A stretch of 64,000 nucleotides of DNA, taken from positions 32,001 to 96,000 of the IMG/VR virus record IMGVR_UViG_3300047476_000597, one strand, 5' to 3'. Positions 1 to 64,000 of the stretch are shown here, piece by piece. The DNA comes from a virus. Each line of letters begins with the position of its first letter. Positions within the stretch are counted from its first letter, which is position 1. Position numbers and translations under genes: made by a program. The notes under the pieces are model-generated. The model saw nothing but the letters and a program-made list of their open reading frames with translations. It was not told where the DNA came from and searched no databases.

Positions 1-164
1 CCTTCATATACCAGTTCCTTAGCATCTTCTTTTGGTGTATATCCCTGCAGTTCTGCTAGTTCTGTTAGTGTTGGGTTGATTGCTACTACTGTACCTTCAA
101 AGAACCCGGTATAGACATCTCTACTACCATAATCTACTACCTGTTTTGCTTTTCCTAGTTTCAT
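1..164 (-). CDS. Partial ORF running off the window edge; crAss-like ssDNA-binding protein candidate
   Basis: My translation MKLGKAKQVVDYGSRDVYTGFFEGTVVAINPTLTELAELQG resembles the N-terminus of crAss-like SSB-type proteins; it lies next to the AAA ATPase. Confidence 0.45.
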   Translation of the reverse strand, partial: MKLGKAKQVVDYGSRDVYTGFFEGTVVAINPTLTELAELQGYTPKEDAKELVYE

Positions 165-197
165 TTTTTGTTTGTTTTTAGTTGTTTGTTTAATTTA

Positions 198-923
198 TTA
201 TATTGTATAGTATTTCTCAATAGAGTTGAATATAAACATAGCATCGTTTGGTATTTCTAGAGGGGTTTCTCCATAACCATCTTTAGAGAACATACCTTCT
301 GGTACTTTTGTAGAAGTATCTTCTTCAAACGTCCTAAGAAAATACTGAGGCTTATTGTCTTTTATTCTTGTATCTGTATACAGTATTACAGAGTAGTGTT
401 GCTCTATCTTGCCTTCAAACTCCTTACCATGAGTAGACATTCTTCTTACCTTGTCTCCTTCGTTGAGTTTTATTAGTTCATCGTGAGATATTACTATGAT
501 GTCTTTCTGTATATTTTTTATCAGTTCAAGATACTCATATACTTGTCTGTTGTAGTTTTTATATACATCAAAACCAGTAAAAGAGGTTCCCATTTCTCTT
601 ATCAACACATTAAACGCCATAGTTTGACTATCTATGATAATAGTTTTTACAGCTGGATTGTTACCGTAATCTTCTAGATTCTTCTTAAACCCTATCCATG
701 TTTTGGGCTGTCCTATGAATGTGAATGGAGTTTCTTGTCTGTATGGAAGGGGTTTTCTTTCCATATTGATGTAACCAGTAGTAAGATGGTCAGCTGTCTT
801 AGATAGATAGCTCTTACCAGTACCAGATTGACCAACAATAGCTACTTTACAATAAAAGTTTCTTGTTGTCTCTTTTTGTTTTTCTTGTGGCAGTATTACA
901 CTGTCTGTTTTTTGTTCTGACAT
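198..923 (-). CDS. AAA-family ATPase (AAA_24/Sak4-like)
   Basis: Walker A GQSGTGKS, Walker B IIIDS, and a SHD motif; located in the replication module. Confidence 0.8.
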   Translation of the reverse strand: MSEQKTDSVILPQEKQKETTRNFYCKVAIVGQSGTGKSYLSKTADHLTTGYINMERKPLPYRQETPFTFIGQPKTWIGFKKNLEDYGNNPAVKTIIIDSQTMAFNVLIREMGTSFTGFDVYKNYNRQVYEYLELIKNIQKDIIVISHDELIKLNEGDKVRRMSTHGKEFEGKIEQHYSVILYTDTRIKDNKPQYFLRTFEEDTSTKVPEGMFSKDGYGETPLEIPNDAMFIFNSIEKYYTI

Positions 924-948
924 ATTGTTTATTTTTTGTTTTTAGTTT

Positions 949-1230
949 TTATACAAAACAAGCTAGATAAGAAGCATCTTCTATCATCCAGTTTAGTTTT
1001 CTTAGTTTTATTACATCTTCTTCTGTTATACCAGCTGCTATCAGATCGTCTATATCTGGGCCATATATTATATCATGACCAGCTGCTTGTAGTATCTCGT
1101 TTTCTGTAGGATCAATGTATTTAGCTATTATCTACATACCTTGAAAGGCGTTATCACCACTCCATTCTGCTTTATATAGCTCTTCATCATCGTGTAGTAT
1201 CTCTATTACTCTTTCTTCTGTTAGTTGCAT
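949..1230 (-). pseudogene. 93-codon phage ORF interrupted by one in-frame TAG at 1132-1134
   Basis: Reads MQLTEERVIEILHDDEELYKAEWSGDNAFQGM*IIAKYIDPTENEILQAAGHDIIYGPDIDDLIAAGITEEDVIKLRKLNWMIEDASYLACFV and fills the intergenic gap exactly. Confidence 0.65.
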
Positions 1231-1240
1231 ATTGTTTGTT

Positions 1241-1459
1241 TTATTCGTTTTCTTTATTTTGTTTTAAACCCTCTTGTAGTTGTTTTATAAGAGTTTCAGT
1301 TTGTTCTGTTGTTAGAAACCAATCATGCCAATTATCTTCTCCAGTTCTTGCTAGAGACAACATAATATCCCTATTATGACGTACACAACCTTGTACTTTT
1401 TTGTTGTAAACTACTAGATGTTCAACAACATCGTCTACATGTTTTACTTGTCTTTCCAT
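1241..1459 (-). CDS. Hypothetical protein
   Basis: ORF in a tightly packed operon with an A-rich leader. Confidence 0.65.
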   Translation of the reverse strand: MERQVKHVDDVVEHLVVYNKKVQGCVRHNRDIMLSLARTGEDNWHDWFLTTEQTETLIKQLQEGLKQNKENE

Positions 1460-1478
1460 TGTTTGTATTTTATTGTTT

Positions 1479-1760
1479 TTATAGTATTCCTGCTATTTTT
1501 AGAGCCTTTTCAGCTACTAGCTCTACTTCCTCATCTCTCCATGTATCTTCTTCATTTTTATCTTTATTGAGGTTGTCCATTGTTTGATAGAGTTCCTGCC
1601 ACTTCATACCATCTTCTATTAGTTGTTTGTAGTGTTCTGTGCAATCTTTCCAACCATTGTTGTATCCATTGTAGTCGTTGTTTATAGCTCCATCTATACT
1701 TCCACACTCAGTTGCATATTGACTAGCTCTTACTCTTATCTGTTCATTTGTTAGTATCAT
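1479..1760 (-). CDS. Hypothetical protein
   Basis: ORF in operon. Confidence 0.65.
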   Translation of the reverse strand: MILTNEQIRVRASQYATECGSIDGAINNDYNGYNNGWKDCTEHYKQLIEDGMKWQELYQTMDNLNKDKNEEDTWRDEEVELVAEKALKIAGIL

Positions 1761-1763
1761 AAC

Positions 1764-2027
1764 CTACTGTTTTATCTTGAATATTACCTTCTCTCCACCT
1801 AGTATTATACGATCTACTACCCACTCAGTACTAGGTATTTTACTACCTACTGATATATACGGACCACCACTAGGATCTATAGCTGTAGGATTCTCTATGT
1901 GTCCATTGATTACTTCTCCTCCTGTTATTCCCATGTAGTGAAGAGTACCTGTCATCTCTACTGTGTCTGGTTCTATTTGTGTGAATAGGATAATATCACC
2001 GTCTCTATTTTTGTACTCTGTTTTCAT
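1764..2027 (-). CDS. Conserved phage hypothetical protein
   Basis: IDPSGGPYISVG motif, which I recall from Bacteroidota-phage proteins; coupled to the upstream gene. Confidence 0.7.
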   Translation of the reverse strand: MKTEYKNRDGDIILFTQIEPDTVEMTGTLHYMGITGGEVINGHIENPTAIDPSGGPYISVGSKIPSTEWVVDRIILGGEKVIFKIKQ

Positions 2028-3529
2028 TATTTTATTGAGTTTTTTATTCTGTTTCTTATTTCTTCTAGTGTTGTTTCTGTTATTACACCATCTTTTAGTA
2101 ATGTTTTTAGTTCACAGTTGTTGACTTCTTTCCATGATACCCGGTCTATTAACATAAAACCACCTATTGGATCTTTATAAACAGCTATCAGTCCTTTTGC
2201 TGATTTTTTAGAGCCACTATCTGTTATCGGGTCTTTGTATATTTCCCTTGGTTGACCAGCTACCTCGCAATATGTGGCTTTTATTGCGCAACCTTGACTA
2301 TCTCTAGTAGCATATCCTAGAGAGTATGAACCAACACCAAACACAACATTAGTAGATGCAAACCCTTTACTTTTGAGTCTTTTACATATTTCCTCTGCTC
2401 TGTCTAGTGTAATAGAATCCCCATATATACAGCCTATGTGAGAATCTAGTACTTTATACCCTTGTTCATTAACTGTACCACCAAAAACATCCCACAGTAG
2501 TTCTACAACACCTTTTTCTTTAGGTAACATTTGTACTTCATTCCAGTTATCTCCTTTATACTCTGAGTGATTAGATACTCTTAAACGTTCTCCGCATATA
2601 ATATCAACAGGATCACCGCTGTCAGGCCGTATTACTATTTTACCATTTCTATTCAGTATTTCATCTTTCAACTGGCAAAGATAGTCAGTACAAACTTTCC
2701 AAAGATCAAAACTATCACTAACAATAGATAGTATACCAGTAGGAAACTGTTTCATTAGTCTTCTGAAACCTTCTATTTCACTTTCTTTTCCATAAGCTGT
2801 CATTACTGCATGTTCACTAGCCGGTACACTAACACCAGCTGAGTATGGTTCATTGTAATAGTACCTAGCAGCTGCAAGAGTAGGTACGGTATCTGTACCA
2901 AAAGAAGAGGTTAAAAACCCAAGACCTGAACTAATAGCAGACTCTGGATGTTGCATACCCCTAAAAGAAAAATCGTGTAGTTGGTAATCTACAAACCACA
3001 TATTGTTACTATCCGTTTCTTTAGCTTCTTTTACTAGTAGTTTTTTGTAGGCATAAACTAAAGAGGCACTATGAAGAGGTTTCCATAATAGACTACTAAT
3101 CAGAGTTTCTAAAAAATTAGTCAACCAAAAAAACTCTGGTAGGGTATTGTGTACTGTTACTATTGGTATTTTTTCTTGCACTACACTACCTTCTGCTAAT
3201 GCCTTTATCTCTATAGGAAGATAGCCTAGGTCATGTAATGCTTCAAAATGACTAACATCATACTCAGAACCAAGATAAGCACTGAGATATTGTCTGGCTT
3301 CTTGACATACTAGATCCTTTGGTTTACTAAAAAACTCTTTGTTATACAAATCTACTATGTATTTTATAGTATACTGAACACCAAAAACCACAATAGCTTT
3401 AGCTTTTTCTGGCATAAAACCAGTGCTTCTAGGAGTAAAATTAGAAAACACTAGTTCTGTATTTTCTGGGTACATAAGATGATGAGATGTTTTATAACCA
3501 TCTGTCATCAATAATGGGTTGTTATTCAT
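2027..3529 (-). CDS. Nicotinamide phosphoribosyltransferase-like protein (Nampt/Namat)
   Basis: Motifs TDGYKTSH, LHDFSFRG, PASEHAVMT, SIVSDS, VIRPDSGDP, IYGDSIT, KKSAKG. Confidence 0.93.
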   Translation of the reverse strand: MNNNPLLMTDGYKTSHHLMYPENTELVFSNFTPRSTGFMPEKAKAIVVFGVQYTIKYIVDLYNKEFFSKPKDLVCQEARQYLSAYLGSEYDVSHFEALHDLGYLPIEIKALAEGSVVQEKIPIVTVHNTLPEFFWLTNFLETLISSLLWKPLHSASLVYAYKKLLVKEAKETDSNNMWFVDYQLHDFSFRGMQHPESAISSGLGFLTSSFGTDTVPTLAAARYYYNEPYSAGVSVPASEHAVMTAYGKESEIEGFRRLMKQFPTGILSIVSDSFDLWKVCTDYLCQLKDEILNRNGKIVIRPDSGDPVDIICGERLRVSNHSEYKGDNWNEVQMLPKEKGVVELLWDVFGGTVNEQGYKVLDSHIGCIYGDSITLDRAEEICKRLKSKGFASTNVVFGVGSYSLGYATRDSQGCAIKATYCEVAGQPREIYKDPITDSGSKKSAKGLIAVYKDPIGGFMLIDRVSWKEVNNCELKTLLKDGVITETTLEEIRNRIKNSIK

Positions 3530-3539
3530 GTTTTTATAT

Positions 3540-4795: not shown

Positions 4796-4997
4796 ATGTT
4801 TTTATTAGTTCCTCATATATACTCTTGTAATCACTATGCTGCCCTACATTCATATCAGGAAACATCTCTCGTTTCATATGGAGGGCATCAAAGATAATCT
4901 GTTTTACTTTTTCATCTTGCATTAATAACAGTTTTTCTTCTGCATCTGTCTTTTTTGGTGGTGGCCATACCATGTCATACATTGAGTCGTCTTTCAT
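4767..4997 (-). CDS. Hypothetical protein
   Basis: ORF coupled to both neighbours. Confidence 0.6.
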   Translation of the reverse strand: MKDDSMYDMVWPPPKKTDAEEKLLLMQDEKVKQIIFDALHMKREMFPDMNVGQHSDYKSIYEELIKTYENATKKEC

Positions 4998-6169: not shown

Positions 6170-6180
6170 TCTATTATTTT

Positions 6181-6666: not shown

Positions 6667-6677
6667 AGTCGTGTGTT

Positions 6678-7782: not shown

Positions 7783-7793
7783 GTTTTTTGTTT

Positions 7794-8087: not shown

Positions 8088-8100
8088 GCTTTTTGTATTA

Positions 8101-10311
8101 CTAATGATTCCAATATGTTGTTAATACTCCTTCTGCGTCCATCTTTACTTTACTACAGTACATCTGAGCTCCTACTTTCATTAGAGTTTCTATCAGCTGT
8201 CTGCCTTGTTCTCCGTACTCTTCTTTTACTTCTGCAAGACTCTCATCGTGTATTAGGTTAATGAGCCATATCTTATCACGTAGATTATTCTCTATTTGAT
8301 ATTTTCTGAACAGAACACCAAACGTCTTAGTTTGACTACCGGCCTGGCCCTGAATACGGTAATTTTGGGCGCACCTTTTGAGGGATCCTTCTATTATTGC
8401 ATACAGTTTTACTAGATTACTGAACCCTGGGTGTTTATTCTCAGCCTCTTCTTTAGCTGCTTGTTTATCATGGTATTTCATATTTTGGTAGTTACTAGGC
8501 AATATTTCCGCTATTTTATTTTTAGCTTCTAGCATACGTTCATAGTCCGGTTCCCAGTATCTTCTACCAGTTATTGAATCTATATCTATGTATCCATGCT
8601 CCAGTGCTTCTCTATGACTGTCATCAAAATACTGTTTGAGGCCAGGAAAGGCTTCTAGGTAGCTGTCTATAAACTTCTGAGCAGTATCTTTATCCACATT
8701 AAGATCATCTTTTAATGTGAATGCGCTTCCACCATATATAATCTTGAATGACAAACTCTTAGCATCATTACGTTCTTTTGGGTGTGTACTCTTACTAATG
8801 AGTAGATTAGGGTCACTACGCAGTACTCTGAATAGTTTAGTAGCTGTCATACTGTGATAGTCTTTACCATGAATAGGATCTCCTTCATTAAAAAACCGTA
8901 ACATAGTAGGGTCTCCAGATACATCAGCTACTATTCGAGCTTCTTGTGATGAATAGTCACAATTTACTATTTTACAACCAGCTGCAGCTGTAAAGGCTTT
9001 TCTGTAATCAGAATCTGAAGGTACGTTTTGAAGATTTGGCCCCCTAGAACTCATCCTTCCCGTATTAAGAATTTGCTTATATGATGTGTGTACACGGCCT
9101 GTTATAGGGTGTATATATTTCAACCAGTCTTTACCGAATGTAGTTACACACTGTTCTGATACCTTGAATAACAGATAGTTGAGTATTAGATCTTTCTCTT
9201 CTACGATGTCTGTCTCTTTATCATCATTGTATCGTTCTTTATACGGCCCATCTAGTAGCTTAGTAAGACTCTTAGCACCAGCTGTATACTCCATTTTGCC
9301 TGTCTGTTTACTCTTTTCCATAGGACAGAATCCTAGGTGCCGAAACAGCTCAATAACCTGCTTACTACTGGTCCATTGTATGCTACATGTATACTCAGCT
9401 CGGAACATATCAGGGGGTGCACAGAATGACCTATGATTAGCTACTACCCAGTCATCTAGTTTCTTCTTACGATGATTGTATATCAGTAGATTCTTCTCAT
9501 AGGTACGTAGCCATTGCTCTTTATCAAACTCCATACCCTTCAGTTCTATATCAGCCAGCACTAAACAGAACTCATTCTCTAGCTGGTGTACAACAACCGG
9601 ATTATACCCTCTAAAACCCTTCAGCTGTTTATCTCTGATATACAGAGGATAGATGATGTCATCAGCACCATATAGTATCTGAGATTCTGTGAATGGAGTA
9701 TCTCTGATTGTCAGGAACCCTTTACGTATTCTCTTATCTATATACAGCTGTTCAGTATCTTCTTCTCCTGTATCTTCTGTGAATAGGTCTCTCTCTTGTA
9801 CAGCTGCAACACCTAGGTATCTGTTAGCCATTGCTTCCAGAGAATAGCTGAATCCTTTCGGGTTGGTTTTACTCTTACCTAGGCCGTTTGTAAGATTTTG
9901 CTCTACTAACATGACGTCCCATATATACCAGAATAGAATACCGTAGTTGTGTAATAGATGTTTAGCCTCGAACCGAATATTAGCACCTACCCACAACCGG
10001 CTCTTATCAGAAAACAGAGGTTTCAATGGTTCTATATCAACAGTACGAGTGTCTATAACATAGACACGTTCTTTAGTGCCTATCTGGAGCATGACCACAG
10101 CTGACAGGTATGGGTCTAGTCCTGGCTGATACACATTTTCATTACGGTATGTATTCAGTCTATAACGTCTTGTAGTTTCAATATCAATCGCCAGTATACT
10201 ATGTTGAGAACAGTACTCATAACACTCATCTATTGTTGCATATACTATCTTCCTAGAGTACTGTTCATTCTTAGGACCAATGAACCTAATCTCTGCTTCT
10301 GGTATTTTCAT
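8101..10311 (-). CDS. polA: DNA polymerase family A with 3'-5' exonuclease domain
   Basis: Exo I AIDIETT, Exo III YGADD, TGRMSSRGPNLQNVP, motif A DYSSQEARI, motif B RNDAKSLSFKIIYG, motif C IHDE. Confidence 0.95.
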   Translation of the reverse strand: MKIPEAEIRFIGPKNEQYSRKIVYATIDECYEYCSQHSILAIDIETTRRYRLNTYRNENVYQPGLDPYLSAVVMLQIGTKERVYVIDTRTVDIEPLKPLFSDKSRLWVGANIRFEAKHLLHNYGILFWYIWDVMLVEQNLTNGLGKSKTNPKGFSYSLEAMANRYLGVAAVQERDLFTEDTGEEDTEQLYIDKRIRKGFLTIRDTPFTESQILYGADDIIYPLYIRDKQLKGFRGYNPVVVHQLENEFCLVLADIELKGMEFDKEQWLRTYEKNLLIYNHRKKKLDDWVVANHRSFCAPPDMFRAEYTCSIQWTSSKQVIELFRHLGFCPMEKSKQTGKMEYTAGAKSLTKLLDGPYKERYNDDKETDIVEEKDLILNYLLFKVSEQCVTTFGKDWLKYIHPITGRVHTSYKQILNTGRMSSRGPNLQNVPSDSDYRKAFTAAAGCKIVNCDYSSQEARIVADVSGDPTMLRFFNEGDPIHGKDYHSMTATKLFRVLRSDPNLLISKSTHPKERNDAKSLSFKIIYGGSAFTLKDDLNVDKDTAQKFIDSYLEAFPGLKQYFDDSHREALEHGYIDIDSITGRRYWEPDYERMLEAKNKIAEILPSNYQNMKYHDKQAAKEEAENKHPGFSNLVKLYAIIEGSLKRCAQNYRIQGQAGSQTKTFGVLFRKYQIENNLRDKIWLINLIHDESLAEVKEEYGEQGRQLIETLMKVGAQMYCSKVKMDAEGVLTTYWNH

Positions 10312-10322
10312 GTTTTTGTTTA

Positions 10323-11295: not shown

Positions 11296-11297
11296 AG

Positions 11298-26078: not shown

Positions 26079-26835
26079 TTATGTAGTAACAGGTGTTAGC
26101 TCTTCTATTGTAGGGAGTTGTCCTTCTTCTAGTACTACTTGTTCGCCTATAGTACAGTATATGTTTTCAAATACACCAGCACGTACCTCTAAGATGTAAT
26201 TAGCTGCTTCAACAGCTGCCTCTCTATTAGAGTATACAAACTCTCTTGTAGTATACGTCTTATTGTGGTGTACGTGAACAGTAACCAGATATACTTTATT
26301 CATTGTTATAGATTGAGAGATTAATAAAAACCAGCTGACTGCATTACACAACCAGCTGGATAAACACAACACATAATCACACTATCGGAACTTGTTCTCA
26401 ATAAGAGCACAACAAGCTGCAAGACACAAGAAAACACCAGCATACAGGAACGTAATCCCATTACCAGTATACATACTACTCATCATTGCAGCAGCAGCTG
26501 TAACAGTGAGTAATACAACAAATAACATAATCACTATAGAACGTATAGTCATAACACAATAGATTAAGAGAGTGAGAGAATGAGAATATATAACAATAAC
26601 CAAACACTAGGGATTAACCTAGTGCTTGGAGTTTAGCAATGAGAACAGGTAATTCAGCCTCGTATTGGGCTGATATACCAGCATTACGTACACGTTGTGC
26701 AAGATATTGCTCACGTAACTCAATAGAGTCCATGAGATATTCTTTACGACATATGTTCGTAAAATGAGTAAGAGTCTGCTCATCAACATGAGGAGCTAGA
26801 AGATGCAGGATACGTGACACTGTATTACTGTCCAT
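26079..26835 (-). CDS. Three small ORFs at the start of the minus-strand arm (ending 26079, 26382, 26614)
   Basis: Co-oriented ORFs; the middle one has two TM helices. Confidence 0.55.
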
Positions 26836-38277: not shown

Positions 38278-38870
38278 TTATGTATACACAAAACGATGAA
38301 GAGTTTTACATCTTAGGGTATTTTAAAGATTTTGTAGGAACCTGTTGTGAGATAGGAGCCAATGATGGAAAATACATAAGTAATACAGCTGCTTTAATAG
38401 ATAGAGGATGGAAGAGTTTTATGGTTGAGCCATCTAAGGCTTTTAATAAACTAAAAGATAACTATGCTGATAATCCTAATGTAGTATGTGTAAACGCTGG
38501 TATTAGTACAAAAGATGAAGATGTTGTGTTTTATGAAGGTAGTGATTCATTATTATCTACTACACAAGAAAAACTAGTAGAGTTTTGGAAAGAGTGTACT
38601 TTTACTCCTACTACTGTAAAGATGCTCACATGGAAAACTTTCTGTGATACATACAATGCAGGTCCTTTTGATTTTATATCACTAGATGCCGAGGGAATGG
38701 ACTGGGATATTTTACAACAGATAGATCTTTCTAATACTAGCATGATATGTATGGAATATACAGCTGGTAATATACAATCCTTTGAGTCTTATTGTAAAAA
38801 ATATGGTATGGTTAAATTAACGCATAATGGCGAAAACCTTATAATGATAAGACCCAAAAAGAATGAATAA
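38268..38870 (+). CDS. FkbM-family SAM methyltransferase
   Basis: EIGANDG, MVEP, SLDAEGMD, ICME. Confidence 0.85.
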   Translation: MVIVMYTQNDEEFYILGYFKDFVGTCCEIGANDGKYISNTAALIDRGWKSFMVEPSKAFNKLKDNYADNPNVVCVNAGISTKDEDVVFYEGSDSLLSTTQEKLVEFWKECTFTPTTVKMLTWKTFCDTYNAGPFDFISLDAEGMDWDILQQIDLSNTSMICMEYTAGNIQSFESYCKKYGMVKLTHNGENLIMIRPKKNE

Positions 38871-41800
38871 AAAACCCTATATAAAAATACCTACTAACAC
38901 TAACGGAGTATGGAGTTATACAGAGTTTCTTTCAAGAGACTCTTTTCGTGTTTTTGTTAAGAACTGTTTTAAAGAGCCTGGTACCTGTGGTTTTAATGAG
39001 GTATCTAAACGATTCAATGAACAAGCTAAGGTGTTTAGTAAGAAAGGGCTGTACTGTGAAGCACCTGAAGGTAGTAGGGACTATATAACATATTGGGATA
39101 CTGAGAAAGAGAAATGTCGTAAAGGTGTTATATTCTCCGATGGTAGTAACAGCTGGTACCTACCTAGAGACTTGTATTTCTGGTGGAACTTTTTGAAGAT
39201 AGCGGATAAAGAGAAAAAGACTGAGGCTTTTCCAGAGGTATGGGATGTTCACTACTACATGGCACTATATAACATACTAGCACAGCTGTATGACAAACAT
39301 AGTGGTATACTGAAAAAGAGGCAGATAGGTAGCTCATTGTATCATATGGCTAAACTCATCAACCTATTGTGGTTTGAAAAATCCCAGATATTAAAGATGG
39401 GAGCATCTGCTAAGGATTATATCAACAACGATAAGGGCAGCTGGTTGATTCTTGATTATTATAGAGATTTTCTAAACAAACACACTGGTTGGTATAGACC
39501 AATGAGCCCGGATAAGAGTGCATCTATGTCCTGGCAACAGAGGTTGGAGGTTAAAGAAAACGGTAGGATTAGTTATGAGGGTAATAGTTCAAAAATTACT
39601 GGTACTTCCTTTGAAAAAAATGCTACTGCTGGTGTTGGTGGTCCCTGCTTATTAAAAGATTCTTTAATATTAATGGCAGATGCTTCCTATAAAAAAGTAC
39701 AAGATATTCTACTAGGAGATCTTATCTGTGGAGCAGATGGTCTACCAAAAAAAGTAGTAGAACTATATAGTGGTGTAGACACTATATATGAGATAAAACA
39801 AACAAGAGGGGCAACCTATTATACTACAGCAGATCACTCACTGTACCTATGGAATCATTATAAAAGCTCTTTTGTAAAAATACTAGCTAAAAATTTTAAT
39901 AATCTATCTATATATAAAAGAACAAAAAAGTTAAGTGGAATAAAGTTTTCAGGTATAAAAGGACAAAAAAAAGAGCTACCTATAGACCCATATTATCTTG
40001 GATTATTTTTAGGTGATGGAACAAGAGGAGATTATAGAATATTAGTAAATGAAACAAAAGACCCTGAAATAGCTGAGTATATAACACAGCTAGCAGAAAC
40101 TGAGATTGGGTATAGACTAACTAAAAGATTTCGTAATCTTACTAGACCTGAATATAATGACACAATGACTGACTATGGAATAGTTAAAAAAGCAAGAGGG
40201 GTTAACTCAAAGTATTCTTTTACTTTTGATGAGTTAGGTCTAGAAAAAAAGCATATACCTAATATATATTATACTAGTTCTAAAGAACAAAGACTAGAAC
40301 TATTAGCTGGTTTAATAGATACAGACGGCTATCTTAACAAAGAAAAAAAGAGATATGAAATATCTATAACTGATAAGGTATTAGCAGACGACATTGTAAA
40401 ATTAAGTATTCAACTAGGTTTTAATACCCAAAGATGTGTTATTGAAAATAGCGGTATAAAATCTACTGTATATAATAAACCTACTAAAAGCCATAGAATA
40501 AATATTACAGGAAATATCTCTATCATACCCTGTAAAGTAAAAAGAAAAATAGCTACAGATGTTTCAACTATGGCTACTAACAATTACAGTAAACTACAAG
40601 TAACCAAGTGGGGAATAGATGAGTATTTTGGGTTTGCTTGTGAGGATAGTTTATTTGTACTGGAAGATGGTACTATTACACACAACTGTAGACTCTTCTT
40701 TCATGAAGAGGCTGGCATTGCCCCTAAGATGGGAGAGACCTTTGAGTTCATGAGGCCGGCTCTTAGTATGGGAGGAATACTCACTGGACAGTTTATTGCA
40801 GCTGGTTCTGTAGGTAATCTTGACCAATGTAAGCCACTAGAAAACATGATTAAGAATCCTCACGGTAATAGTATATATGCTGTAAAGAGTACACTAGTTA
40901 ATGAGAATGGAGATGAAGCCGATACAGGGCTATTCATACCAGAACAATGGGGTCGACCACCACATATAGATCAATACGGTAACTCTCTAGTACAAGAAGC
41001 CCTAGAGGCTATTAAGAAAGAAAGACACGTATGGGAACATGGTAATCCTGTTACCGGAGAAAAACCTATTGATAAAGAAAAACTACAGCTACGTATATCA
41101 CAACAGCCTATTAATATTGATGAGGCTTTTGCTATCCGAAAAACATCTCTATTCCCTAACCGGTATGTAAAACCACAGATACAGAGAATAGAGGATGGTG
41201 AATATAAGATGGAATACGTAGACCTAGAACGTAATGAATTAGGACAGGTTATTACAGTGCCATCTAAAAGACTGCCACTAGAGTATGGTTCCTCTATGAC
41301 ACTAGAGGATAAAAGGGCATGTGTTGTTATATACAAACATCCTATACAAGGTAAAATACCACTAAGAACATACCTAGGTTCTATTGACCCTGTAGCTGGT
41401 GATAAGAGTATTACCTCAGCATCATTAGCATGTATATACATATACGAAATGCCTATCTATCGTGTACATACTAACCCTGATGGAACAAAAGAAACTACTA
41501 CAGAAGGCGGTAGGTTAGTAGCATCTTGGACCGGTAGGTATGATGATGTTAATGAAACTAACGAACAGTTGTCTATGTTAGTTGAGTACTATCAGGCGTA
41601 TACAACGTGTGAGTATAATGTTGGTACCTGGGTACAGTACATGATTGCTAAAAAAAGAACCAGATATGTAGCTGTTAAAGAAGATATGATGTATGATAAA
41701 GAGTTAGGAATAACCCAATCATCTATGAATAACTATGGTTGGTACAACGTTGATAGAGTATGGAAAAAGATGTTACAAGATTCTATAGACTATATAGCTG

Positions 41801-42192
41801 AAGAAATACTAGTAATAAAAGGAGAGGACGGAGAAAAGAAAAAAGTAGAGTACGGAATAACACGTATTCCTGATATATGGTTATTAAGAGAGATGCAACA
41901 GTATCAAGAAAAGGATGGCCGAAACTATGACCGTATAATAGCTTTCTGTGCTCTTGTAGCTTTTGTTAATATACGTCTTAGTACATTACCTGGTCTGTAT
42001 ACTGATACACATGTTAACAGTAGCAGTGAGCAAACAGACAAAGATAAAAAGATGAGTAGTAATGATAATATACGTATCTTTAAAGAGAACACACAAACAT
42101 TTAGGAATCTTCTTGGAATGGACAGTAATACCAGTGTTACTAGCGATTACAGCAAATACAAAAGAAGATCTCCTTTCAAAAACCTAAGATAA
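38863..42192 (+). CDS. terL: Terminase large subunit (contains an intein)
   Basis: Walker A KKRQIGSS, Walker B FFHEEAG, nuclease GSIDPV, NYDRI; lies upstream of the portal. Confidence 0.92.
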   Translation: MNKKPYIKIPTNTNGVWSYTEFLSRDSFRVFVKNCFKEPGTCGFNEVSKRFNEQAKVFSKKGLYCEAPEGSRDYITYWDTEKEKCRKGVIFSDGSNSWYLPRDLYFWWNFLKIADKEKKTEAFPEVWDVHYYMALYNILAQLYDKHSGILKKRQIGSSLYHMAKLINLLWFEKSQILKMGASAKDYINNDKGSWLILDYYRDFLNKHTGWYRPMSPDKSASMSWQQRLEVKENGRISYEGNSSKITGTSFEKNATAGVGGPCLLKDSLILMADASYKKVQDILLGDLICGADGLPKKVVELYSGVDTIYEIKQTRGATYYTTADHSLYLWNHYKSSFVKILAKNFNNLSIYKRTKKLSGIKFSGIKGQKKELPIDPYYLGLFLGDGTRGDYRILVNETKDPEIAEYITQLAETEIGYRLTKRFRNLTRPEYNDTMTDYGIVKKARGVNSKYSFTFDELGLEKKHIPNIYYTSSKEQRLELLAGLIDTDGYLNKEKKRYEISITDKVLADDIVKLSIQLGFNTQRCVIENSGIKSTVYNKPTKSHRINITGNISIIPCKVKRKIATDVSTMATNNYSKLQVTKWGIDEYFGFACEDSLFVLEDGTITHNCRLFFHEEAGIAPKMGETFEFMRPALSMGGILTGQFIAAGSVGNLDQCKPLENMIKNPHGNSIYAVKSTLVNENGDEADTGLFIPEQWGRPPHIDQYGNSLVQEALEAIKKERHVWEHGNPVTGEKPIDKEKLQLRISQQPINIDEAFAIRKTSLFPNRYVKPQIQRIEDGEYKMEYVDLERNELGQVITVPSKRLPLEYGSSMTLEDKRACVVIYKHPIQGKIPLRTYLGSIDPVAGDKSITSASLACIYIYEMPIYRVHTNPDGTKETTTEGGRLVASWTGRYDDVNETNEQLSMLVEYYQAYTTCEYNVGTWVQYMIAKKRTRYVAVKEDMMYDKELGITQSSMNNYGWYNVDRVWKKMLQDSIDYIAEEILVIKGEDGEKKKVEYGITRIPDIWLLREMQQYQEKDGRNYDRIIAFCALVAFVNIRLSTLPGLYTDTHVNSSSEQTDKDKKMSSNDNIRIFKENTQTFRNLLGMDSNTSVTSDYSKYKRRSPFKNLR
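39646..40686 (+). mobile_element. Intein with LAGLIDADG homing endonuclease (347 aa)
   Basis: GGP/CLLKDSLILMAD ... ITHN/C junctions; TADH block B; LGLFLGDG and LAGLIDTDG. Confidence 0.93.
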
Positions 42193-46314: not shown

Positions 46315-47952
46315 ATGACACCAAGTTTTAACAATGGGATTTTTCTCCGACAGACTAACATAGAGTTCGGCTCTGACTGGAACATGCAGCATATGATGGC
46401 TATGTCCAAAAACCAACAACCTACGGATTTGGGTCCGGTTGAGTTTTGGATGCAGTTGAAAAAGATATGGGCACCTCTGTACTCTATGACTGCTTTTACT
46501 AGTAGCCAAAAAATACCAGTTACCGATATGGCTGGTAGGTATTCTTGGCAGGTACCAGAGCTTAATGATATGCCACGTATAGTGCGTGATGTTGAGCCTA
46601 CTAACACACAAAAAGGTCGTGGTGGTACACTGTTCAAAATAGCCCTTAACAGGAAGGCGTATGGTCTTAATGCTATTCTTACCTATGACAAGTTCAGTGG
46701 TATGGAGTTTATCGTAACAGATATTCAAGACTACTCTGACAATGAGTTTATCTATATCTGTCGTTTGGTTAACGGTAATAGCGATCTGTTTCTTCCTAAT
46801 GATGTTCTTATACCACAGACACCTATATTCAGAATGGGTTCTGCTAAAGGTGAGTATAGCGAGAACTACGACTCTATTAATACAAAAGCTAGTTACCGTG
46901 AGTATTATAACTATACTGCAACTGCAGAGGCTAACTTTGAGATGAGCATATCTGATAGGGCTCAGTACATAATGCACTCAAAAGCAGCAGCTGGTACTAA
47001 AGGTTTACCTATCCAAGAAGTTTGGAAATTTGACCCTGAAACATCTAAGGATGTATCTACCTATGGTGTAGACCCTATTCTGAATAAATTAGGTTCTACT
47101 GAGGTTATGAAGCGTATACAAGACGGTACTATATGGTACGGTTTCTGTACTCAACTAGAGTTGCAAGGACAAAAGAAAATAGCTGCTGATATTGAGAACT
47201 ACGGCATGTGGGGTAAAGGTGGTAAAATATCTATGCCTGATGGTCGTGATGATGCTCGTTTGCCTGTAGGTATATGGAGACAGCTGGACAATGCATACAA
47301 ACGTGCTTATAACGTAGGTGTGTCTATATTGCCTATTCTAGAAAACCAGATCAAAAACTTCTTTAATGGTCGTGTTGATTTTGTAGGACCTGACCCAGAA
47401 AGAAAATTGATTATACAGACTGGTATGGGTGGTATGCAACAGGCCATGGCAGAGATTAAGAAAATGGCTAACAGCTCTGGTCTTGTACAAAATGCTTCTG
47501 AGATAGGTGCAATTAGTGGAAAGGCCATGAGTCTTGATTTTGGGTATGCATTCCAGAGCTATGTTATACCGTTCTTGGCTAATGTTAAGTTCCAACTAAA
47601 CCCGGCTCTTGATGCTGTAGAAGCTAATGAACGTGAGAATCCAATGTTGAACGGTTACAGATTGTCTTCTTATGCTTACATCATAATGGATGTAACTAAC
47701 AACCTTTCTGATAACATATTCCAGCTAGAAAACACTAACCTGAATCCAGCATTCAAATGGAGATATGTTAATGGTACAGCTGACTATATGATGAGAACAT
47801 CTGGTTTCCAATCATCTGGCAACTTCTCAGGTTTCAAACTGTATATGACTCAGTTGATGAAGACCTTCTGGATTAAAGATCCGACTAAGGTTCTGAAAGT
47901 GGTACCAATCAACCCAATTACAAAACTACCTTTTGGTTCTTTTTCATACTAA
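46315..47952 (+). CDS. Major capsid protein (crAss-like)
   Basis: Position, size, QTGMGGM and IKDPTK motifs; followed by a terminator. Confidence 0.85.
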   Translation: MTPSFNNGIFLRQTNIEFGSDWNMQHMMAMSKNQQPTDLGPVEFWMQLKKIWAPLYSMTAFTSSQKIPVTDMAGRYSWQVPELNDMPRIVRDVEPTNTQKGRGGTLFKIALNRKAYGLNAILTYDKFSGMEFIVTDIQDYSDNEFIYICRLVNGNSDLFLPNDVLIPQTPIFRMGSAKGEYSENYDSINTKASYREYYNYTATAEANFEMSISDRAQYIMHSKAAAGTKGLPIQEVWKFDPETSKDVSTYGVDPILNKLGSTEVMKRIQDGTIWYGFCTQLELQGQKKIAADIENYGMWGKGGKISMPDGRDDARLPVGIWRQLDNAYKRAYNVGVSILPILENQIKNFFNGRVDFVGPDPERKLIIQTGMGGMQQAMAEIKKMANSSGLVQNASEIGAISGKAMSLDFGYAFQSYVIPFLANVKFQLNPALDAVEANERENPMLNGYRLSSYAYIIMDVTNNLSDNIFQLENTNLNPAFKWRYVNGTADYMMRTSGFQSSGNFSGFKLYMTQLMKTFWIKDPTKVLKVVPINPITKLPFGSFSY

Positions 47953-61040: not shown

Positions 61041-61970
61041 ATGATACTATCAATAACATACGATACACCTACACCACCGGCTACCTGTGGTTTTAAGGCT
61101 CAATACAGAAAGAACACTGCAGCTGTTTATACAGAGATATTGGCAGAGGAATCTTCTACTGGTATGACTGCTACTATAGCTGCTCCTTGTTGTATAGAGG
61201 GTTATGTACAATCTGATTGCTGCGATGGTCTACTATCTGTTAACACTCCTTTTGGTATTAACAGCTACGTAGAGTTTGAAACAGAAGCAGGTAACAATAC
61301 AGAGATTCAACAGTTTACTATTACAGTAACATCAGAGTATGCTAACCCATACGATACTCTGGTAGCTGGTACACTATCTTATACAGTAACAGGAGATCCG
61401 TACACACTAGACTACGATGTTACACTACCAGCTGGTGAAACTACTATTACAGAGAATATAGGAGTAGCACCAACAGTTGCTATAATAACCAGTAATGTGG
61501 TCACTAGTTACTCTCCAATATTCTCATATGGTGGGGAGTTACAACAAACAGACCCATTGCGAACACCTGACTACTTTGCATTCATAGCATCTCCATCAGG
61601 CAGTGTATGGAATGGTTCTCCTACTAGCTTACCCTCATTTACACAAAATGCATTTATAGTAACAGAACAAGATGAGAGTGAGAATGTGACAGCTGGTAAT
61701 CTACTGGTATCATGGATATATGATAGTATCTACGAGGATGGGGTAACACCTTATGATAACGTTACATTTGAGGTATATGACAGCAATAGTGATCTTATAG
61801 GAACTAATATAGTATCTACTAGTACTAAAGGACTCAGGAATACTACAATAGCTCTTACTAAAAACAGTATACCACTGGTAGAAGATAACGAGTTTACAAT
61901 GATTACCCGATGGGACGATAACAGCGAGATTGTTTCTAAGGTCTTTTATCTACCACCAGCTACAGTATAA
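61041..61970 (+). CDS. Beta-rich structural protein
   Basis: Thr/Ser-rich ORF. Confidence 0.6.
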   Translation: MILSITYDTPTPPATCGFKAQYRKNTAAVYTEILAEESSTGMTATIAAPCCIEGYVQSDCCDGLLSVNTPFGINSYVEFETEAGNNTEIQQFTITVTSEYANPYDTLVAGTLSYTVTGDPYTLDYDVTLPAGETTITENIGVAPTVAIITSNVVTSYSPIFSYGGELQQTDPLRTPDYFAFIASPSGSVWNGSPTSLPSFTQNAFIVTEQDESENVTAGNLLVSWIYDSIYEDGVTPYDNVTFEVYDSNSDLIGTNIVSTSTKGLRNTTIALTKNSIPLVEDNEFTMITRWDDNSEIVSKVFYLPPATV

Positions 61971-62001
61971 CAGAGAGTGGTTCCCTCTGCTTTTGGCACA
62001 T

Positions 62002-62025
62002 ACCCTTCTCTACAGAAGGGTTTTG
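62002..62025 (+). terminator. Intrinsic terminator
   Basis: acccttct-ctac-agaagggt followed by ttt. Confidence 0.7.
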
Positions 62026-62082
62026 CTATTACATGTAAAATATTTATTTCTGTGTTGGAATAACATTAACTATCTTTAACCT

Positions 62083-62709
62083 ATGGAACCGGTGCAGTTA
62101 AAAAAACTAAGAACATATAATAAACCAGATCTTAATGCTCCTAGGTATAGAGAAGAATGTGCTAGAATGGATAGTAAACAACAGCTGCAGGAATTAAGAG
62201 AAAAATACCCTAATATAAAAAACTATACAGATTCACAGATAAAAAAGATATTTAAAGAGTTCAACAGTACAACATTAGCAGAGTATATAAGAACGGAAAG
62301 AGAACCAATAGAGTTTCCATTCTCAATGGGCCATATGTTCTTAGGTTCCTATGGAAAATGGTCTGATGGCCGAGTAGATAAGAAACTATCTACTAATATA
62401 GGACTAGAAGCACATCATAGGAATGGGGATAGCGATGGATATGGTCTTTATATTTTCTGGACTGCTTCAGGTGTGACTAGTAAAAAGGTGTTTGCTAATA
62501 ACCACATGTGGGGCTTTACTCCTTGTAGAAATCTTTTGAGAGGTGCTAATGCAGCAGTAAGAGCAGTAGATGGTATGTGGAAGACATTCATTCCTGTTCG
62601 TAATAGTAAGTTTCTTAGAAGAGATGTTATACTAGGAAAAACAGCAATAAACAACAAGATGTTTAACCAAGAAGAGATAGAAAAATACGATGAGTTTTCT
62701 TTTGATTAA
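62083..62709 (+). CDS. IHF-like protein of the crAss tail module
   Basis: IEFPFSMGHM...IFW...FTPCR. Confidence 0.55.
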   Translation: MEPVQLKKLRTYNKPDLNAPRYREECARMDSKQQLQELREKYPNIKNYTDSQIKKIFKEFNSTTLAEYIRTEREPIEFPFSMGHMFLGSYGKWSDGRVDKKLSTNIGLEAHHRNGDSDGYGLYIFWTASGVTSKKVFANNHMWGFTPCRNLLRGANAAVRAVDGMWKTFIPVRNSKFLRRDVILGKTAINNKMFNQEEIEKYDEFSFD

Positions 62710-62719
62710 TAGGTAGAAA

Positions 62720-63400
62720 ATGGCAGCAACAAAAATAGGAACAGTAACTAGTAGGTTAAGAGGAATGGTTAAGGCACATAAGCAAGATGCTCAGGTGACT
62801 GATCGTTTTCTGTATTCTATATGGAAAAAATATGCTAGTGTTGCTATTAAGAGGATGGATATACAAGGCAGACTATTACCATTCTCATCAGTTTTTGAGA
62901 CACTAGATATGGTAGAGTTAGAAGATGTTGATTTTGTAGAGGCAGCAGCTTGTGTACCTGTTAAAAGCTATAGAACACTAAAGAGAACTAAACTAGCTAT
63001 GCCTATGTTTACTGAGGGTGCATATGGTCCTTTAGTCCGTAGCATAACATCATTAGATGGCAGTGTATCATTTACTATAACTACTATGGACACATGGTAC
63101 CACATATCTAAGAGTAAGAACTACCGGTATGATAAGACAAAATATTGTTGGTTTATTAATGACCGGCTTTATTTTCCAGACACACTATTTCCAATGGTTA
63201 GAATAGAAGGAGTTTTTGAAGAAGATATATCTGCTTTTACCTGTTGTGGTGAAGATAGATGTAAACCAAGACAAGAGCAATCTCTTAATGTGCCTGATTA
63301 TCTTATGGCTGATATAGAGCAACTAGTATTGCGTGATCTAGGGATTATTATTCAGATACCTACTGATACTGTACAGGACAATGTTAATATAGCAAAATGA
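62720..63400 (+). CDS. Tail ring protein (crAss-like)
   Basis: RLYFP...IEGVFE...DNVN. Confidence 0.6.
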   Translation: MAATKIGTVTSRLRGMVKAHKQDAQVTDRFLYSIWKKYASVAIKRMDIQGRLLPFSSVFETLDMVELEDVDFVEAAACVPVKSYRTLKRTKLAMPMFTEGAYGPLVRSITSLDGSVSFTITTMDTWYHISKSKNYRYDKTKYCWFINDRLYFPDTLFPMVRIEGVFEEDISAFTCCGEDRCKPRQEQSLNVPDYLMADIEQLVLRDLGIIIQIPTDTVQDNVNIAK

Positions 63401-64000
63401 GCACAAGACTAAAAGAGTTAAAGTGGAGAACATTTGATGACCTTATGAATGAGGTAAACATTGACATGTACTCATTCTCACAGGATAGTAGTATACAGCC
63501 AGCTCAGTTAATAAAGATGGTACAGCTGTGTAACAAAGAGCTAGGTGTTAAGATTCAAAAGACTAAAGAGACTGTGCTAGATGTTTGTGATAAAGCAGCT
63601 AAACTACCAGCTGATTTTGACCTTGCCAATTTTGCGTTAGTAGCCCATCACTGGAAAAGGCATGAATGTACTGATCCAGGTTATCTTACTGGTTATAGTG
63701 TTACTGAACGTTCAATATATCCTGACCCAACATTGACTACATGCCCTTGTTGGACTGTTGTGTCTACTGGTGCCCAGACTACTGTTAAACAATGTGATGG
63801 CACAGAAGAATCCGTATTCTTTCCAGCTAATGATGATAGTTCTGCAAAGACTACTAAGGTGTGTGCTATGAGTATTACACCACATGCTAATCTAGTATTA
63901 ACAGAAGGCAGTGGTTGTTTTTATGATTATGCTACTACTAGTTACAGCTGTACAAAACCAGTTGTTTGTAAGGTGTGTGAAAGAGCCCAACGTTCTTGTG
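63397..64000 (+). CDS. Tail tubular/ring protein, partial
   Basis: MSTRLKELKWRTFDDL...AKLPADF; frame appears open to the window edge. Confidence 0.6.
   Translation, partial: MSTRLKELKWRTFDDLMNEVNIDMYSFSQDSSIQPAQLIKMVQLCNKELGVKIQKTKETVLDVCDKAAKLPADFDLANFALVAHHWKRHECTDPGYLTGYSVTERSIYPDPTLTTCPCWTVVSTGAQTTVKQCDGTEESVFFPANDDSSAKTTKVCAMSITPHANLVLTEGSGCFYDYATTSYSCTKPVVCKVCERAQRSC

Follow-up and report, generated by a model that had tools for sequence, protein, structure and literature searches.

The palindrome CAGCTG recurs throughout the genome of this phage, well beyond protein-, codon- and dinucleotide-preserving expectations, and is held there mostly through synonymous codon choice. The stretch analyzed (the window, 64,000 nt) corresponds to positions 32001-96000 of a 133,627-bp genome, which carries 324 copies in all, about one per 400-410 bp; the reversed word GTCGAC has 2 copies in the whole genome. 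Exact counting gave ~2.4 copies per kb in the window, on both gene arms, bearing out an earlier note, made from the sequence by eye, that the word continues through the plus-strand arm. That note had counted about 57 copies in positions 1-20,000, which is the exact number (57), and every position it named is occupied, including the abutting pair at 8979/8985. It had estimated ~35% GC and one chance occurrence per 10 kb; the measured GC of 36.5% gives an order-0 expectation of 7.2 copies in the window, or 1 per 8.9 kb. The copies and the features first needed are:

1..64000, unstranded: CAGCTG set of the window, 155 copies, assessed by exact counts, Markov nulls, and codon and dinucleotide shuffles
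8101-10311, minus strand: family A DNA polymerase gene (Pfam DNA_pol_A match)
8979..8990, unstranded: two abutting CAGCTG copies (CAGCTGCAGCTG; starts 8979 and 8985) inside the family A DNA polymerase gene
26331..26359, unstranded: paired CAGCTG copies (starts 26332 and 26353), 21 bases apart, in CCAGCTG(G) context

The copies at 26332 and 26353, which had been described as lying in non-coding hairpins, are both present, and 7-bp pairing is possible as read from the sequence, but they fall within the beginning of a called minus-strand ORF of 97 aa or immediately upstream of it, and the hairpin is putative. Placement of the word is random: gaps between copies are exponentially distributed (CV 1.00, KS p=0.52), the longest gap is 2399 versus about 2375 expected, and every 5-kb bin holds between 5 and 20 copies. 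The flanks did not reveal an extended motif, ACAGCTGT being found 36 times, whereas flank preferences acting independently, computed from the CAGCTG flank counts, would give about 47.

The excess was assayed against a series of null models. For the genome, Markov models of orders 0, 1, 2 and 3 predict 15.0, 30.5, 70.6 and 157 copies, so that the 324 observed are about 21-fold above the order-0 expectation. Within called CDS, 314 copies were observed, compared with 99.8 +/- 8.6 (maximum 125 in 300 shuffles) upon per-gene synonymous shuffling, which preserves the protein and its codon usage, and 53 +/- 7 upon codon permutation. Synonymous shuffles that also preserve dinucleotide counts gave 112.8 +/- 8.6 in the pooled version and 145.4 +/- 8.4 (maximum 163 in 200 shuffles) in the per-gene version. 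Under the synonymous shuffle, CAGCTG ranks first among all 4096 hexamers, with z about 28. The earlier note had offered codon-preserving shuffling and lower-order bias as possible ways to explain the enrichment away; since the excess survives shuffles that preserve protein, codons and dinucleotides (314 versus 100-145), neither does so.

The enrichment is likewise independent of reading frame. Copies in the frames CAG|CTG (95 versus 18.6 shuffled), nCA|GCT|Gnn (192 versus 78) and nnC|AGC|TGn (27 versus 3.2) are 2.5- to 8-fold over expectation despite different codon junctions, and the 6.3 kb outside called ORFs contain 9 copies versus an order-0 expectation of 0.47, about 19-fold. These observations agree with the earlier statement that one codon pair does not explain the pattern. 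The density is 1.4-1.8 per kb in non-coding and 2.4 per kb in coding DNA. Codon choice showed at Gln-Leu pairs, where CAG-CTG was used in 95 of 223 (15.6 expected), and at [STPA]-Ala-[VADEG] triplets, where the motif was present in 192 of 321 (74.6 expected). Overall, 314 of 640 synonymous opportunities for CAGCTG were used (49%), with 35-58% in each 10-kb bin.

Words differing from CAGCTG at the outermost positions were mildly enriched over the synonymous shuffle (CAGCTA 1.6x, TAGCTG 1.3x, TAGCTA 1.35x), as was CTAG (1.3x), and TAGCTG and CAGCTA have 163 and 128 copies in the genome. Inner-position variants have 2 to 74 copies and mostly fall below 1x, the transition neighbours CAACTG and CAGTTG standing at 0.42 and 0.62 times the mean of the shuffles. 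The suggestion that the variants are abundant thus applied, mildly (1.3-1.6x), to four of the words named, but GTAC showed no excess over the second-order Markov prediction for the genome. Avoidance of palindromes is a textbook trait of phage genomes and is strong in this one for other words: GAATTC, GATATC and CAATTG each occur once and CTTAAG and AAGCTT 4 times, versus order-0 expectations of 45 each, and the genome has 0 copies of CGCG (150 expected) and 149 of AATT (1344 expected). CAGCTG runs in the opposite direction, and its 324 copies, standing against the trend, imply a strong site-specific force, still unnamed.

We compared the phage with its relatives, for which the major capsid gene served as query, and with candidate hosts:

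46315..47952, plus strand: major capsid gene, crAss-like type (Pfam PF23898), with CAGCTG at 46988, 47281 and 47777
38863..42192, plus strand: terminase large subunit gene with intein, with CAGCTG at 39150, 39283, 39438 and 40799

The closest capsid relative is 68% identical. Across 17 related records, CAGCTG occurs at 0.02-0.67 per kb compared with 2.42 here, 80 related phage loci contain 420 copies versus 425.9 expected under the synonymous null, and Lbo-JY46, the nearest cultured phage, has 18 versus 10-14 expected. Where relatives have the same amino acids at the CAGCTG sites of this phage, the word was used in 48 of 661 cases; at the capsid site 47281, Gln-Leu is present in 156 of 160 aligned relatives, only 1 of which spells it CAGCTG. 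Among 401 Bacteroidota genomes, the typical density was about 0.2 per kb and the maximum 1.03, none approaching that of the phage, and stretches of four denser genomes showed no excess under the codon null. Comparison with relatives and candidate hosts, as the earlier note had proposed, therefore yielded no excess in the 80 loci or in the sampled Bacteroidota. Given that the same null leaves no excess in the relatives, the nearest cultured phage and the sampled Bacteroidota, the trait belongs to this phage lineage. A host-driven process has no support among the sampled Bacteroidota, although the phage's own host may lie outside this sample, which covered Bacteroidota only. The phage is from freshwater, and near relatives occur in public freshwater metagenomes.

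The terminase gene contains an intein with Pfam Hint, LAGLIDADG and Hom_end domains over residues 262-551. As the earlier note had stated, the intein lacks CAGCTG, but this absence is not significant: the interval between the copies at 39438 and 40799 spans the intein domains and is empty, where about 2.8 are expected, and 0 of 3 synonymous opportunities in the intein were used, compared with the genome average of 49%. The site at 40799 aligns with the terminases of relatives and is thus extein.

The earlier note had also pointed to a possible PvuII/AluI-type methyltransferase elsewhere in the genome. Searching the entire phage genome in six frames detected no C5 methylase (PF00145) and no Vsr (PF03852), with controls matching, and no N4/N6 PvuII-class methylase (PF01555) or D12/Dam methylase. 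No cognate methylase of the PvuII/AluI type was thus found in the phage, PF01555 and PF00145 giving no matches. The sole DNA methyltransferase found was:

Genome positions 14559-16565, minus strand, outside the window: DarB-like gamma-class N6-adenine DNA methyltransferase gene, 668 aa (N6_Mtase/Eco57I-type match, NPPY motif)

This gene is located in the early/replication arm, away from the structural genes, between an HNH nuclease gene, which overlaps it, and a SNF2 helicase gene two small ORFs downstream. By tblastn, its methyltransferase domain matches, with E 1e-13 to 1e-24, GenBank phage regions that carry a DarB-like antirestriction annotation, at 24-30% identity across about half of its length, and a 62%-identical copy is found on a 129,030-bp contig, the same length as the contig of the closest capsid relative. 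None of the 17 related records searched, which include one that is 100% complete, contained the gene, and three viral loci with distant homologues lack an iterated palindrome. The fold of the predicted model matches the DNA adenine methylases BpuSI, HsdM, M.BseCI and M.TaqI; the model has no large target-recognition domain, and residues 388-577 are predicted to be disordered. Only 35 of the 176 genes of this phage are common to the relatives, meaning that many genes other than the methyltransferase differ as well.

The word is six bases long, two-fold symmetric and enriched whatever the frame, strand or coding status, which points to a sequence-specific protein that recognises it in double-stranded DNA. 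The proposal that a site-specific process creates or selects CAGCTG thus holds in its core, given the shuffles, the frames and the non-coding copies, though not for the PvuII/AluI-type methylases named as candidates. Our main reading, to which we give a probability of roughly one in three, is that a methylase module of the phage has CAGCTG as its selected target, with the DarB-like methyltransferase as candidate reader. A phage-specified enzyme would act on the word, the sole DNA methyltransferase being the best candidate, and selection would favour many marked sites, as dense adenine methylation might tag or shield the phage DNA from host restriction or from the phage's own nuclease. If each extra site gave a small benefit, random spacing would result, together with a graded preference of CAGCTG over CAGCTA/TAGCTG and TAGCTA, and of these over other variants. 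That more methylated sites are beneficial is conjecture. The mildly enriched outer variants are a better fit to graded binding than to a repair drive that consumes precursors. Counted against the methyltransferase were the comparison of a single genome carrying trait and gene with relatives lacking both, the loci of distant homologues without an iterated palindrome, and the model without a large target-recognition domain. We know of no defined palindromic target for the DarB-like antirestriction family. A more specific proposal, which is tentative and on the unlikely side, is that the methylase-HNH-SNF2 module recognises CAGCTG and places N6-methyladenine on it, either as a self-identity code against host or rival DNA or to blunt restriction. 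Half of the permissive codons, along with some of the Gln-Leu dipeptides, would then have been rewritten in the lineage, so that a methyl mark might recur every few hundred bases of phage DNA.

Other explanations were weighed against selection for a methylase target. One is that the word is a by-product of composition, whether of codon usage, amino-acid content or dinucleotide bias or of the strong avoidance of AATT and of many restriction sites. A portion of the raw excess does arise in this way: protein sequence and codon usage alone bring the expected count from 15 up to about 100, the Gln-Leu spellings CAATTA and CAATTG include the avoided AATT, and the relatives stand at 2-4 times their Markov expectation (464 versus 126-232), a surplus that vanishes under the codon null. 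Such a by-product is highly improbable for this phage, however, as the most conservative null gives 113-145 copies in place of 314, with none of 200 shuffles above 163, the word is enriched in all three frames and in non-coding DNA, and CAG-CTG occurs at six times expectation while CAG-CTA, which has the favoured Leu codon, matches its expected number (39 versus 37.6).

We consider it fairly unlikely that the sites arose by mutational drive, a host or phage process in which methylation-linked or sequence-biased repair or gene conversion turns near-cognates into CAGCTG. A site-independent conversion rate would account for the exponential spacing and the uniform use of opportunities in all genes and on both arms, the coding and non-coding densities are similar, and HIP1 of cyanobacteria provides a precedent together with a proposed repair model, set out in Elhai, 2015 (PMC4390886). 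The known action of Vsr on Dcm sites is a second precedent. The phage encodes RecA, RuvC, a PD-(D/E)XK nuclease and a uracil-DNA glycosylase, and so handles its own recombination and part of repair, but without a C5 methylase and Vsr the known T:G repair route is not phage-encoded. Depletion of CAACTG and CAGTTG would fit consumption of precursors, yet it is partly automatic under this null because the shuffle redistributes the codons of the motif itself, and the transition neighbours at the outer positions, CAGCTA and TAGCTG, show enrichment, not consumption. The Bacteroidota genomes, as described, carry no host-wide signal. Distinctly unlikely, in our estimate, is that CAGCTG serves a host factor or a phage protein other than the methyltransferase, as a Chi-like signal that tames a host exonuclease, as a decoy that draws off a defence protein, or as the binding site of a phage protein of compaction, replication priming or recombination. 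A palindrome reads both ways, which suits a linear genome attacked at both ends, an additive, position-independent function agrees with the random spacing, and, with the majority of the 176 predicted genes outside any known family, a DNA-binding protein could easily have gone unrecognised. No candidate protein was found, the flanks add nothing to the word, and Chi sites and uptake sequences (USS/DUS), though also short, protein-machine-read words at high genome-wide density through selection or drive and sometimes picked up by phages, are asymmetric and enriched in the host genome, whereas CAGCTG is palindromic and not enriched in any sampled candidate host.

Among known systems, the pattern most resembles HIP1 (GCGATCGC) and the alternate iterated palindromes of cyanobacteria in form, as the earlier note had proposed for HIP1: a short palindrome in hundreds of copies, one per several hundred bases in coding and non-coding DNA, genome-wide and far above codon-aware expectation, with one-off variants biased to the outermost positions and a suspected, unproven link to a DNA methyltransferase. 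It is nonetheless not HIP1, as GCGATCGC and CGATCG each have 0 copies in the genome; the phage word is an AT-richer 6-mer, the PvuII site, in a 134-kb phage genome with a crAss-like capsid gene rather than a cyanobacterial chromosome, and the sole methylase, a candidate reader only, is an N6-adenine enzyme. HIP1 spacing has also been described in a recent paper as quasi-periodic (PMC13756078), in contrast to the random spacing here, and the available text of Elhai, 2015 (PMC4390886) does not contain CAGCTG. Vsr/Dcm repair at enterobacterial CCWGG similarly biases a short palindrome and its one-off neighbours through methylase-linked repair, but requires the C5 methylase and Vsr endonuclease that the phage lacks, and its effect in E. 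coli is modest, nowhere near tenfold. DarB of phage P1 combines methylase and helicase motifs, and packaging in the virion with action in cis on injected DNA is a trait of DarB-like antirestriction methylases; this phage shares the methylase domain match and has a helicase gene nearby, but as separate genes, in the early/replication arm and with the HNH gene overlapping the methylase. No iterated palindrome is known to us from a phage that bears DarB, and our searches of open-access text returned no report of CAGCTG-type palindrome enrichment in a phage.

To our knowledge, bacterial iterated palindromes, HIP1 above all, have been without a mechanism for three decades, partly because the candidate genes sit among thousands. 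The phase space is far smaller in this phage, with about 176 genes, a single DNA methyltransferase, and a comparison of trait-present and trait-absent genomes that is clean under a calibrated null; together with the near relatives, these features make the cause of the pattern testable. If the identity-code reading is true, CAGCTG would be without a known viral precedent as an iterated palindrome, and would also be the first case in which the possible causal gene set is small enough for a direct test, and it may inform the HIP1 question.

We counted 155 copies of CAGCTG in the window (GC content 36.5%), of which exactly 57 lie in positions 1-20,000, the number estimated by eye in an earlier note, and every position named in that note carries the word. 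Across the genome, which is one virus record, 133,627 bp long and rated complete, CAGCTG is present 324 times and the reversed word twice, compared with expectations of 15.0 from base composition and 30.5, 70.6 and 157 from first-, second- and third-order Markov models, respectively; in the higher-order models the signal is absorbed, as CAGCTG contributes to the pentamers on which they are built. The word is an outlier among all 64 palindromic hexamers. Near-absent from the same genome are GAATTC (1 copy), GATATC (1), CAATTG (1), CTTAAG (4), AAGCTT (4) and TGATCA (7), each expected 45 times at order 0, as well as TAATTA (11 compared with 135 at order 0) and CGCG (0). The phage is under heavy restriction pressure, against which the CAGCTG excess stands out all the more. 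The strongest depletion of any tetramer, about ninefold, is that of AATT (149 compared with 1344 at order 0; 139 compared with 673 under a synonymous shuffle, z = -32), and AAAT/ATTT and AAGT/ACTT also are strongly depleted. The AATT deficit is similar in several capsid relatives (for example, 10 compared with 66 at locus L074 and 13 compared with 81 at locus L019) and could come from a host enzyme that cuts AATT or from avoidance of A-tract-like DNA.

The gene set used for the codon-level analyses comprised 176 called ORFs covering 95% of the genome, which is laid out as a minus-strand and a plus-strand arm.

Minus-strand arm, inside the window: genes for a family A DNA polymerase, a DnaB-like helicase, NAPRTase and a PRPP-synthetase-like protein
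Window 2027-4795, minus strand (and locus L009, 16548-20757): NAPRTase and PRPP-synthetase-like genes, close together, as in Leptolyngbya phage Lbo-JY46
Window 17140-17519, minus strand: tmRNA gene (Rfam RF00023, 88.7 bits, E = 4e-33, full-length match to model positions 1-374 of 374)
Minus-strand arm, outside the window: genes for RecA, RuvC, a PD-(D/E)XK nuclease, ThyX, dCTP deaminase, uracil-DNA glycosylase and a DnaG-type primase
Plus-strand arm: structural genes, including an intein-split terminase, a crAss-like major capsid protein and huge proteins of up to 4557 aa
Window 38863-42192, plus strand: terminase large subunit, with an intein carrying Hint and LAGLIDADG homing-endonuclease domains (residues 262-551, Pfam)
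Genome 109852-123525, plus strand, outside the window: 4557-aa ORF with 44 CAGCTG copies, the genome-average density

Free-standing HNH and GIY-YIG endonuclease genes also are found in the genome, outside the window, and the tmRNA tag given by ARAGORN is unusually long, ending in ...YGEFAVAA. CAGCTG density is similar in both gene arms.

Codon usage does not explain the excess, and composition alone is excluded as its cause. The earlier note had named a codon- and dipeptide-preserving shuffle as a test of the enrichment, which persisted: 314 copies are observed in coding sequence, compared with 99.8 +/- 8.6 when synonymous codons were permuted within each gene, keeping protein and codon usage (maximum in 300 runs, 125), and 53 +/- 7 when codons were permuted regardless of amino acid. 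Swapping third bases among codons that share their first two bases and the following base, which keeps the protein, codon usage and all dinucleotide counts, gave 112.8 +/- 8.6 copies with all genes pooled and 145.4 +/- 8.4 with each gene shuffled separately (maximum in 200 shuffles, 163). These nulls are conservative, since CAGCTG's own codons inflate the codon usage that is preserved. Among all 4096 hexamers, CAGCTG is the most enriched under the synonymous null (z about 28), and the next few overlap it. The word occurs in different reading frames, as the earlier note said; it is enriched in all three (CAG CTG, 95 compared with 18.6; nCA GCT Gnn, 192 compared with 78; nnC AGC TGn, 27 compared with 3.2) and occurs in non-coding DNA, with nine copies in the 6.3 kb outside called ORFs, part of which may encode short proteins, compared with 0.47 expected by composition.

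The sites are mainly synonymous spellings of conserved residues. Gln-Leu dipeptides are spelled CAG-CTG in 95 of 223 cases, compared with 15.6 predicted from codon frequencies, while CAG-CTA, whose Leu codon is the favoured one, occurs as often as predicted (39 compared with 37.6); similarly, 192 of 321 [Ser/Thr/Pro/Ala]-Ala-[Val/Ala/Asp/Glu/Gly] tripeptides contain CAGCTG (74.6 expected). Overall, 314 of the 640 opportunities permitted by the proteins are used, at 35-58% per 10-kb bin and with no outlying gene. We dropped the possibility that sites arose mainly through amino-acid replacement, since at columns where the relatives agree motif residues deviate less often (11/49) than other residues (1106/2499; Fisher p=0.002), which is also the basis for viewing the spellings as synonymous. 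The Gln-Leu dipeptide is itself over-represented (223 compared with 146 expected; Leu-Gln, 158), which may reflect a small shift in the proteins themselves. The terminase intein does lack CAGCTG, as the earlier note stated, but with about 2.8 copies expected and 0/3 opportunities used this absence is not significant.

Gaps between sites are exponentially distributed (CV 1.00, KS p=0.52), the longest being 2399 bp, compared with about 2375 bp expected for 323 exponential gaps; we detected no periodicity in the spacing and no sign of a rule requiring at least one copy per given number of bases. A pattern of three copies within short gaps, designed as a probe for other motif-rich viruses, had no match in the window. 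The random spacing, together with the uniform use of opportunities, indicates that each site counts singly, and independent sites fit either additive selection or a constant rate of conversion. Flanking bases add little, with T before and A after CAGCTG disfavoured and the 36 occurrences of ACAGCTGT not above the prediction from independent flanks. One-off variants form a hierarchy: under the synonymous null, the outer-position variants said earlier to look abundant are mildly enriched (CAGCTA, 1.6x; TAGCTG, 1.3x; TAGCTA, 1.35x), and the ratio for most inner-position variants does not exceed 1 (CAACTG, 0.42; CTGCTG, 0.49; CAGTTG, 0.62). AAGCTT is almost absent. This null makes some depletion of neighbours automatic.

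Relatives of the capsid protein number in the thousands. The nearest are 68%, 65% and 63% identical, and a large clade, on contigs that reach about 150 kb, has about 48-50% identity. Scans of the viral collection with the window's capsid, with proteins P0004 and P0007, and with the methylase described below gave no matches; a metagenome scan recovered relatives about 48% identical among the matches listed. The DNA compared is that of the 48% capsid clade, as 80 viral and 80 metagenome loci. The 80 viral loci (1.21 Mb) together have 464 copies of CAGCTG compared with 126 (order 0) or 232 (order 1), which resembles a mild excess across the family. With synonymous shuffling, the comparison with related phages that the earlier note advised yielded 420 copies observed and 425.9 expected, with a top z in any locus of 3.8; the null is thus well calibrated and the mild Markov excess reflects codon usage. 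Whole records of 17 relatives have 0.02-0.67 CAGCTG per kb, compared with 2.42 in the phage studied here, and at 56 aligned sites relatives encode the same amino acids in 661 of 2834 cases, with the CAGCTG spelling in 48 of those 661. The nearest cultured phage, Lbo-JY46 (capsid 25.6% identical), has 18 copies, compared with 10-14 expected. Since neither these relatives nor Lbo-JY46 have the excess, the trait belongs to the lineage, not the family; it is lineage-specific.

A contrast of gene content with three near-complete capsid relatives was uninformative, as just 35 of the 176 genes are in common. One capsid relative (locus L012; record of 52,788 bp) shows the opposite trend, with a single CAGCTG in 52.8 kb; in its 21.6-kb locus, CAGCTG is found 0 times compared with 5.4 under the codon null, and the top-enriched palindrome is GCCGGC (8 compared with 1.2). 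This relative suggests that, within the family, the frequency of such sites follows differences in host or enzyme. Freshwater metagenome contigs of a second and a third study contain the strain studied here, as pieces that match it to at least 99%. Sequencing run X5, from a fourth freshwater study, contains a relative that is about 15-18% diverged (for example, 113 differences in 636 bases at window 61094-61729) and closer than any relative whose DNA was fetched; here the CAGCTG at 61120, the sole site in the stretch covered by 40 of the 823 differences, reads CAGCTA.

Six-frame profile searches of the whole genome, in which positive controls were detected, revealed no C5, N4/N6 beta-class (PvuII-type) or D12/Dam methylase and no Vsr, so that the PvuII/AluI-type methyltransferase suggested by the earlier note is absent. 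The genome encodes exactly one DNA methyltransferase, here termed the methylase, with a nuclease and a helicase gene nearby.

Genome 14559-16565, minus strand, 15 kb outside the window: methylase, 668 aa, with N6_Mtase and Eco57I-methylase domains and an NPPY motif
Genome 16537-17280: HNH nuclease gene, upstream of and overlapping the methylase gene
Genome 9983-13816: SNF2 helicase gene (1277 aa), two small ORFs downstream of the methylase gene

Residues 1-387 are confidently modeled as a gamma-class DNA adenine methylase, with fold matches to BpuSI, type I HsdM subunits, M.BseCI, CamA, M.TaqI and BREX PglX, whereas residues 388-577 are predicted to be disordered and a small beta domain is predicted at the end of the protein. 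The modeled fold confirms the enzyme class and is silent on the target. Matching regions of GenBank phages often are annotated as DarB-like antirestriction. The gene is absent from all 17 related viral records, one of them rated 100% complete, an association with the motif that has one positive genome. Protein searches found relatives on contigs of up to 149 kb, with identities of 53-68% for the capsid and 59-81% for the methylase, and contigs of 123-138 kb are among those with methylase homologues; a full-length methylase of 62% identity and the closest capsid relative are both on contigs of 129,030 bp, and the nearest relative therefore probably has the gene. A methylase profile scan of viral contigs recovered three loci (46%, 45% and 28% identity) with no CAGCTG excess and no other iterated palindrome; their C-terminal parts differ from the phage enzyme, so they are no test of its specificity.

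Cellular homologues of the methylase (80 kept of 237 confirmed) carry the domain fused to helicase-containing proteins, and all 80 have names that we take to be of Bacteroidota, mostly Chitinophagaceae. The nearest RecA structural clusters also are mostly Bacteroidota, and together these neighbours point to Bacteroidota as candidate hosts. The replication genes, by contrast, match cyanophage Lbo-JY46 and not the capsid relatives, and the RecA, NAPRTase, PRPP-synthetase-like, DnaB-like helicase and PolA genes match Lbo-JY46 and not the three near-complete capsid relatives; judged from such matches, the genome is a mosaic. When 401 Bacteroidota genomes were searched by BLAST with the tmRNA gene, its universal 5´ and 3´ ends alone had matches, giving no host clue. 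In these genomes, drawn evenly from the phylum, CAGCTG density peaks at 1.03 per kb and is mostly close to 0.2; five genomes with methylase homologues have 0.07-0.70 per kb. Stretches of four denser Bacteroidota genomes had no excess under the codon null (29 compared with 28.9, 19 with 23.5, 3 with 4.6 and 14 with 9.3), and the dense genomes are simply GC-rich.

A two-fold symmetric word enriched in any frame, on either strand and whatever the coding status is the signature of duplex DNA recognition by a sequence-specific protein. The earlier inference of a site-specific process is right in outline, and the mechanisms that follow are proposals. The sole sequence-reading DNA enzyme that we can name in the genome is the adenine methylase, which has nuclease and helicase genes nearby and is missing in relatives without the trait. 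We therefore put at about one in three the probability that CAGCTG is a selected target of this methylase module, forming a dense methyl mark that would protect the phage DNA or label it as the phage's own; the enzyme would recognize CAGCTG and modify the phage DNA there, and the phage would benefit from many sites. Recognition may be graded, with a core of AGCT, pyrimidine/purine flanks, and C and G best.

A drive by biased repair or conversion, linked to methylation or otherwise, as proposed for HIP1, the iterated palindrome of cyanobacteria (PMC4390886), would match the constant conversion rate that independent sites allow, but the mildly enriched outer-position variants fit graded recognition better than a repair process that consumes precursors, and Vsr-type shaping is not encoded in the phage genome; we consider such a drive unlikely. 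Slightly less probable still is that CAGCTG is bound by a factor of the host or by a phage protein that the annotation does not recognise; the Bacteroidota stretches sampled have no excess. The rest of the probability falls to causes outside those considered. The CAGCTG methylases that we found in the literature are plasmid-borne PvuII-type enzymes of Salmonella (PMC4393132), which are not relevant here.

Although like HIP1 in form, as the earlier note recognized, the CAGCTG pattern differs in the word itself and in the kind of genome, and so falls outside HIP1. It is the opposite of restriction-site avoidance, to which many other palindromes in the same genome conform; avoidance, not enrichment, is treated in the relevant passages of Rusinov, 2018 (PMC6286503). 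Chi and uptake sequences likewise are machine-read words at high density, but those are asymmetric and host-wide. Searches of open-access papers yielded no report in which CAGCTG, or any HIP-like palindrome, is over-represented in a phage. For a virus, such an iterated palindrome is unexpected, and it lends itself to direct testing.
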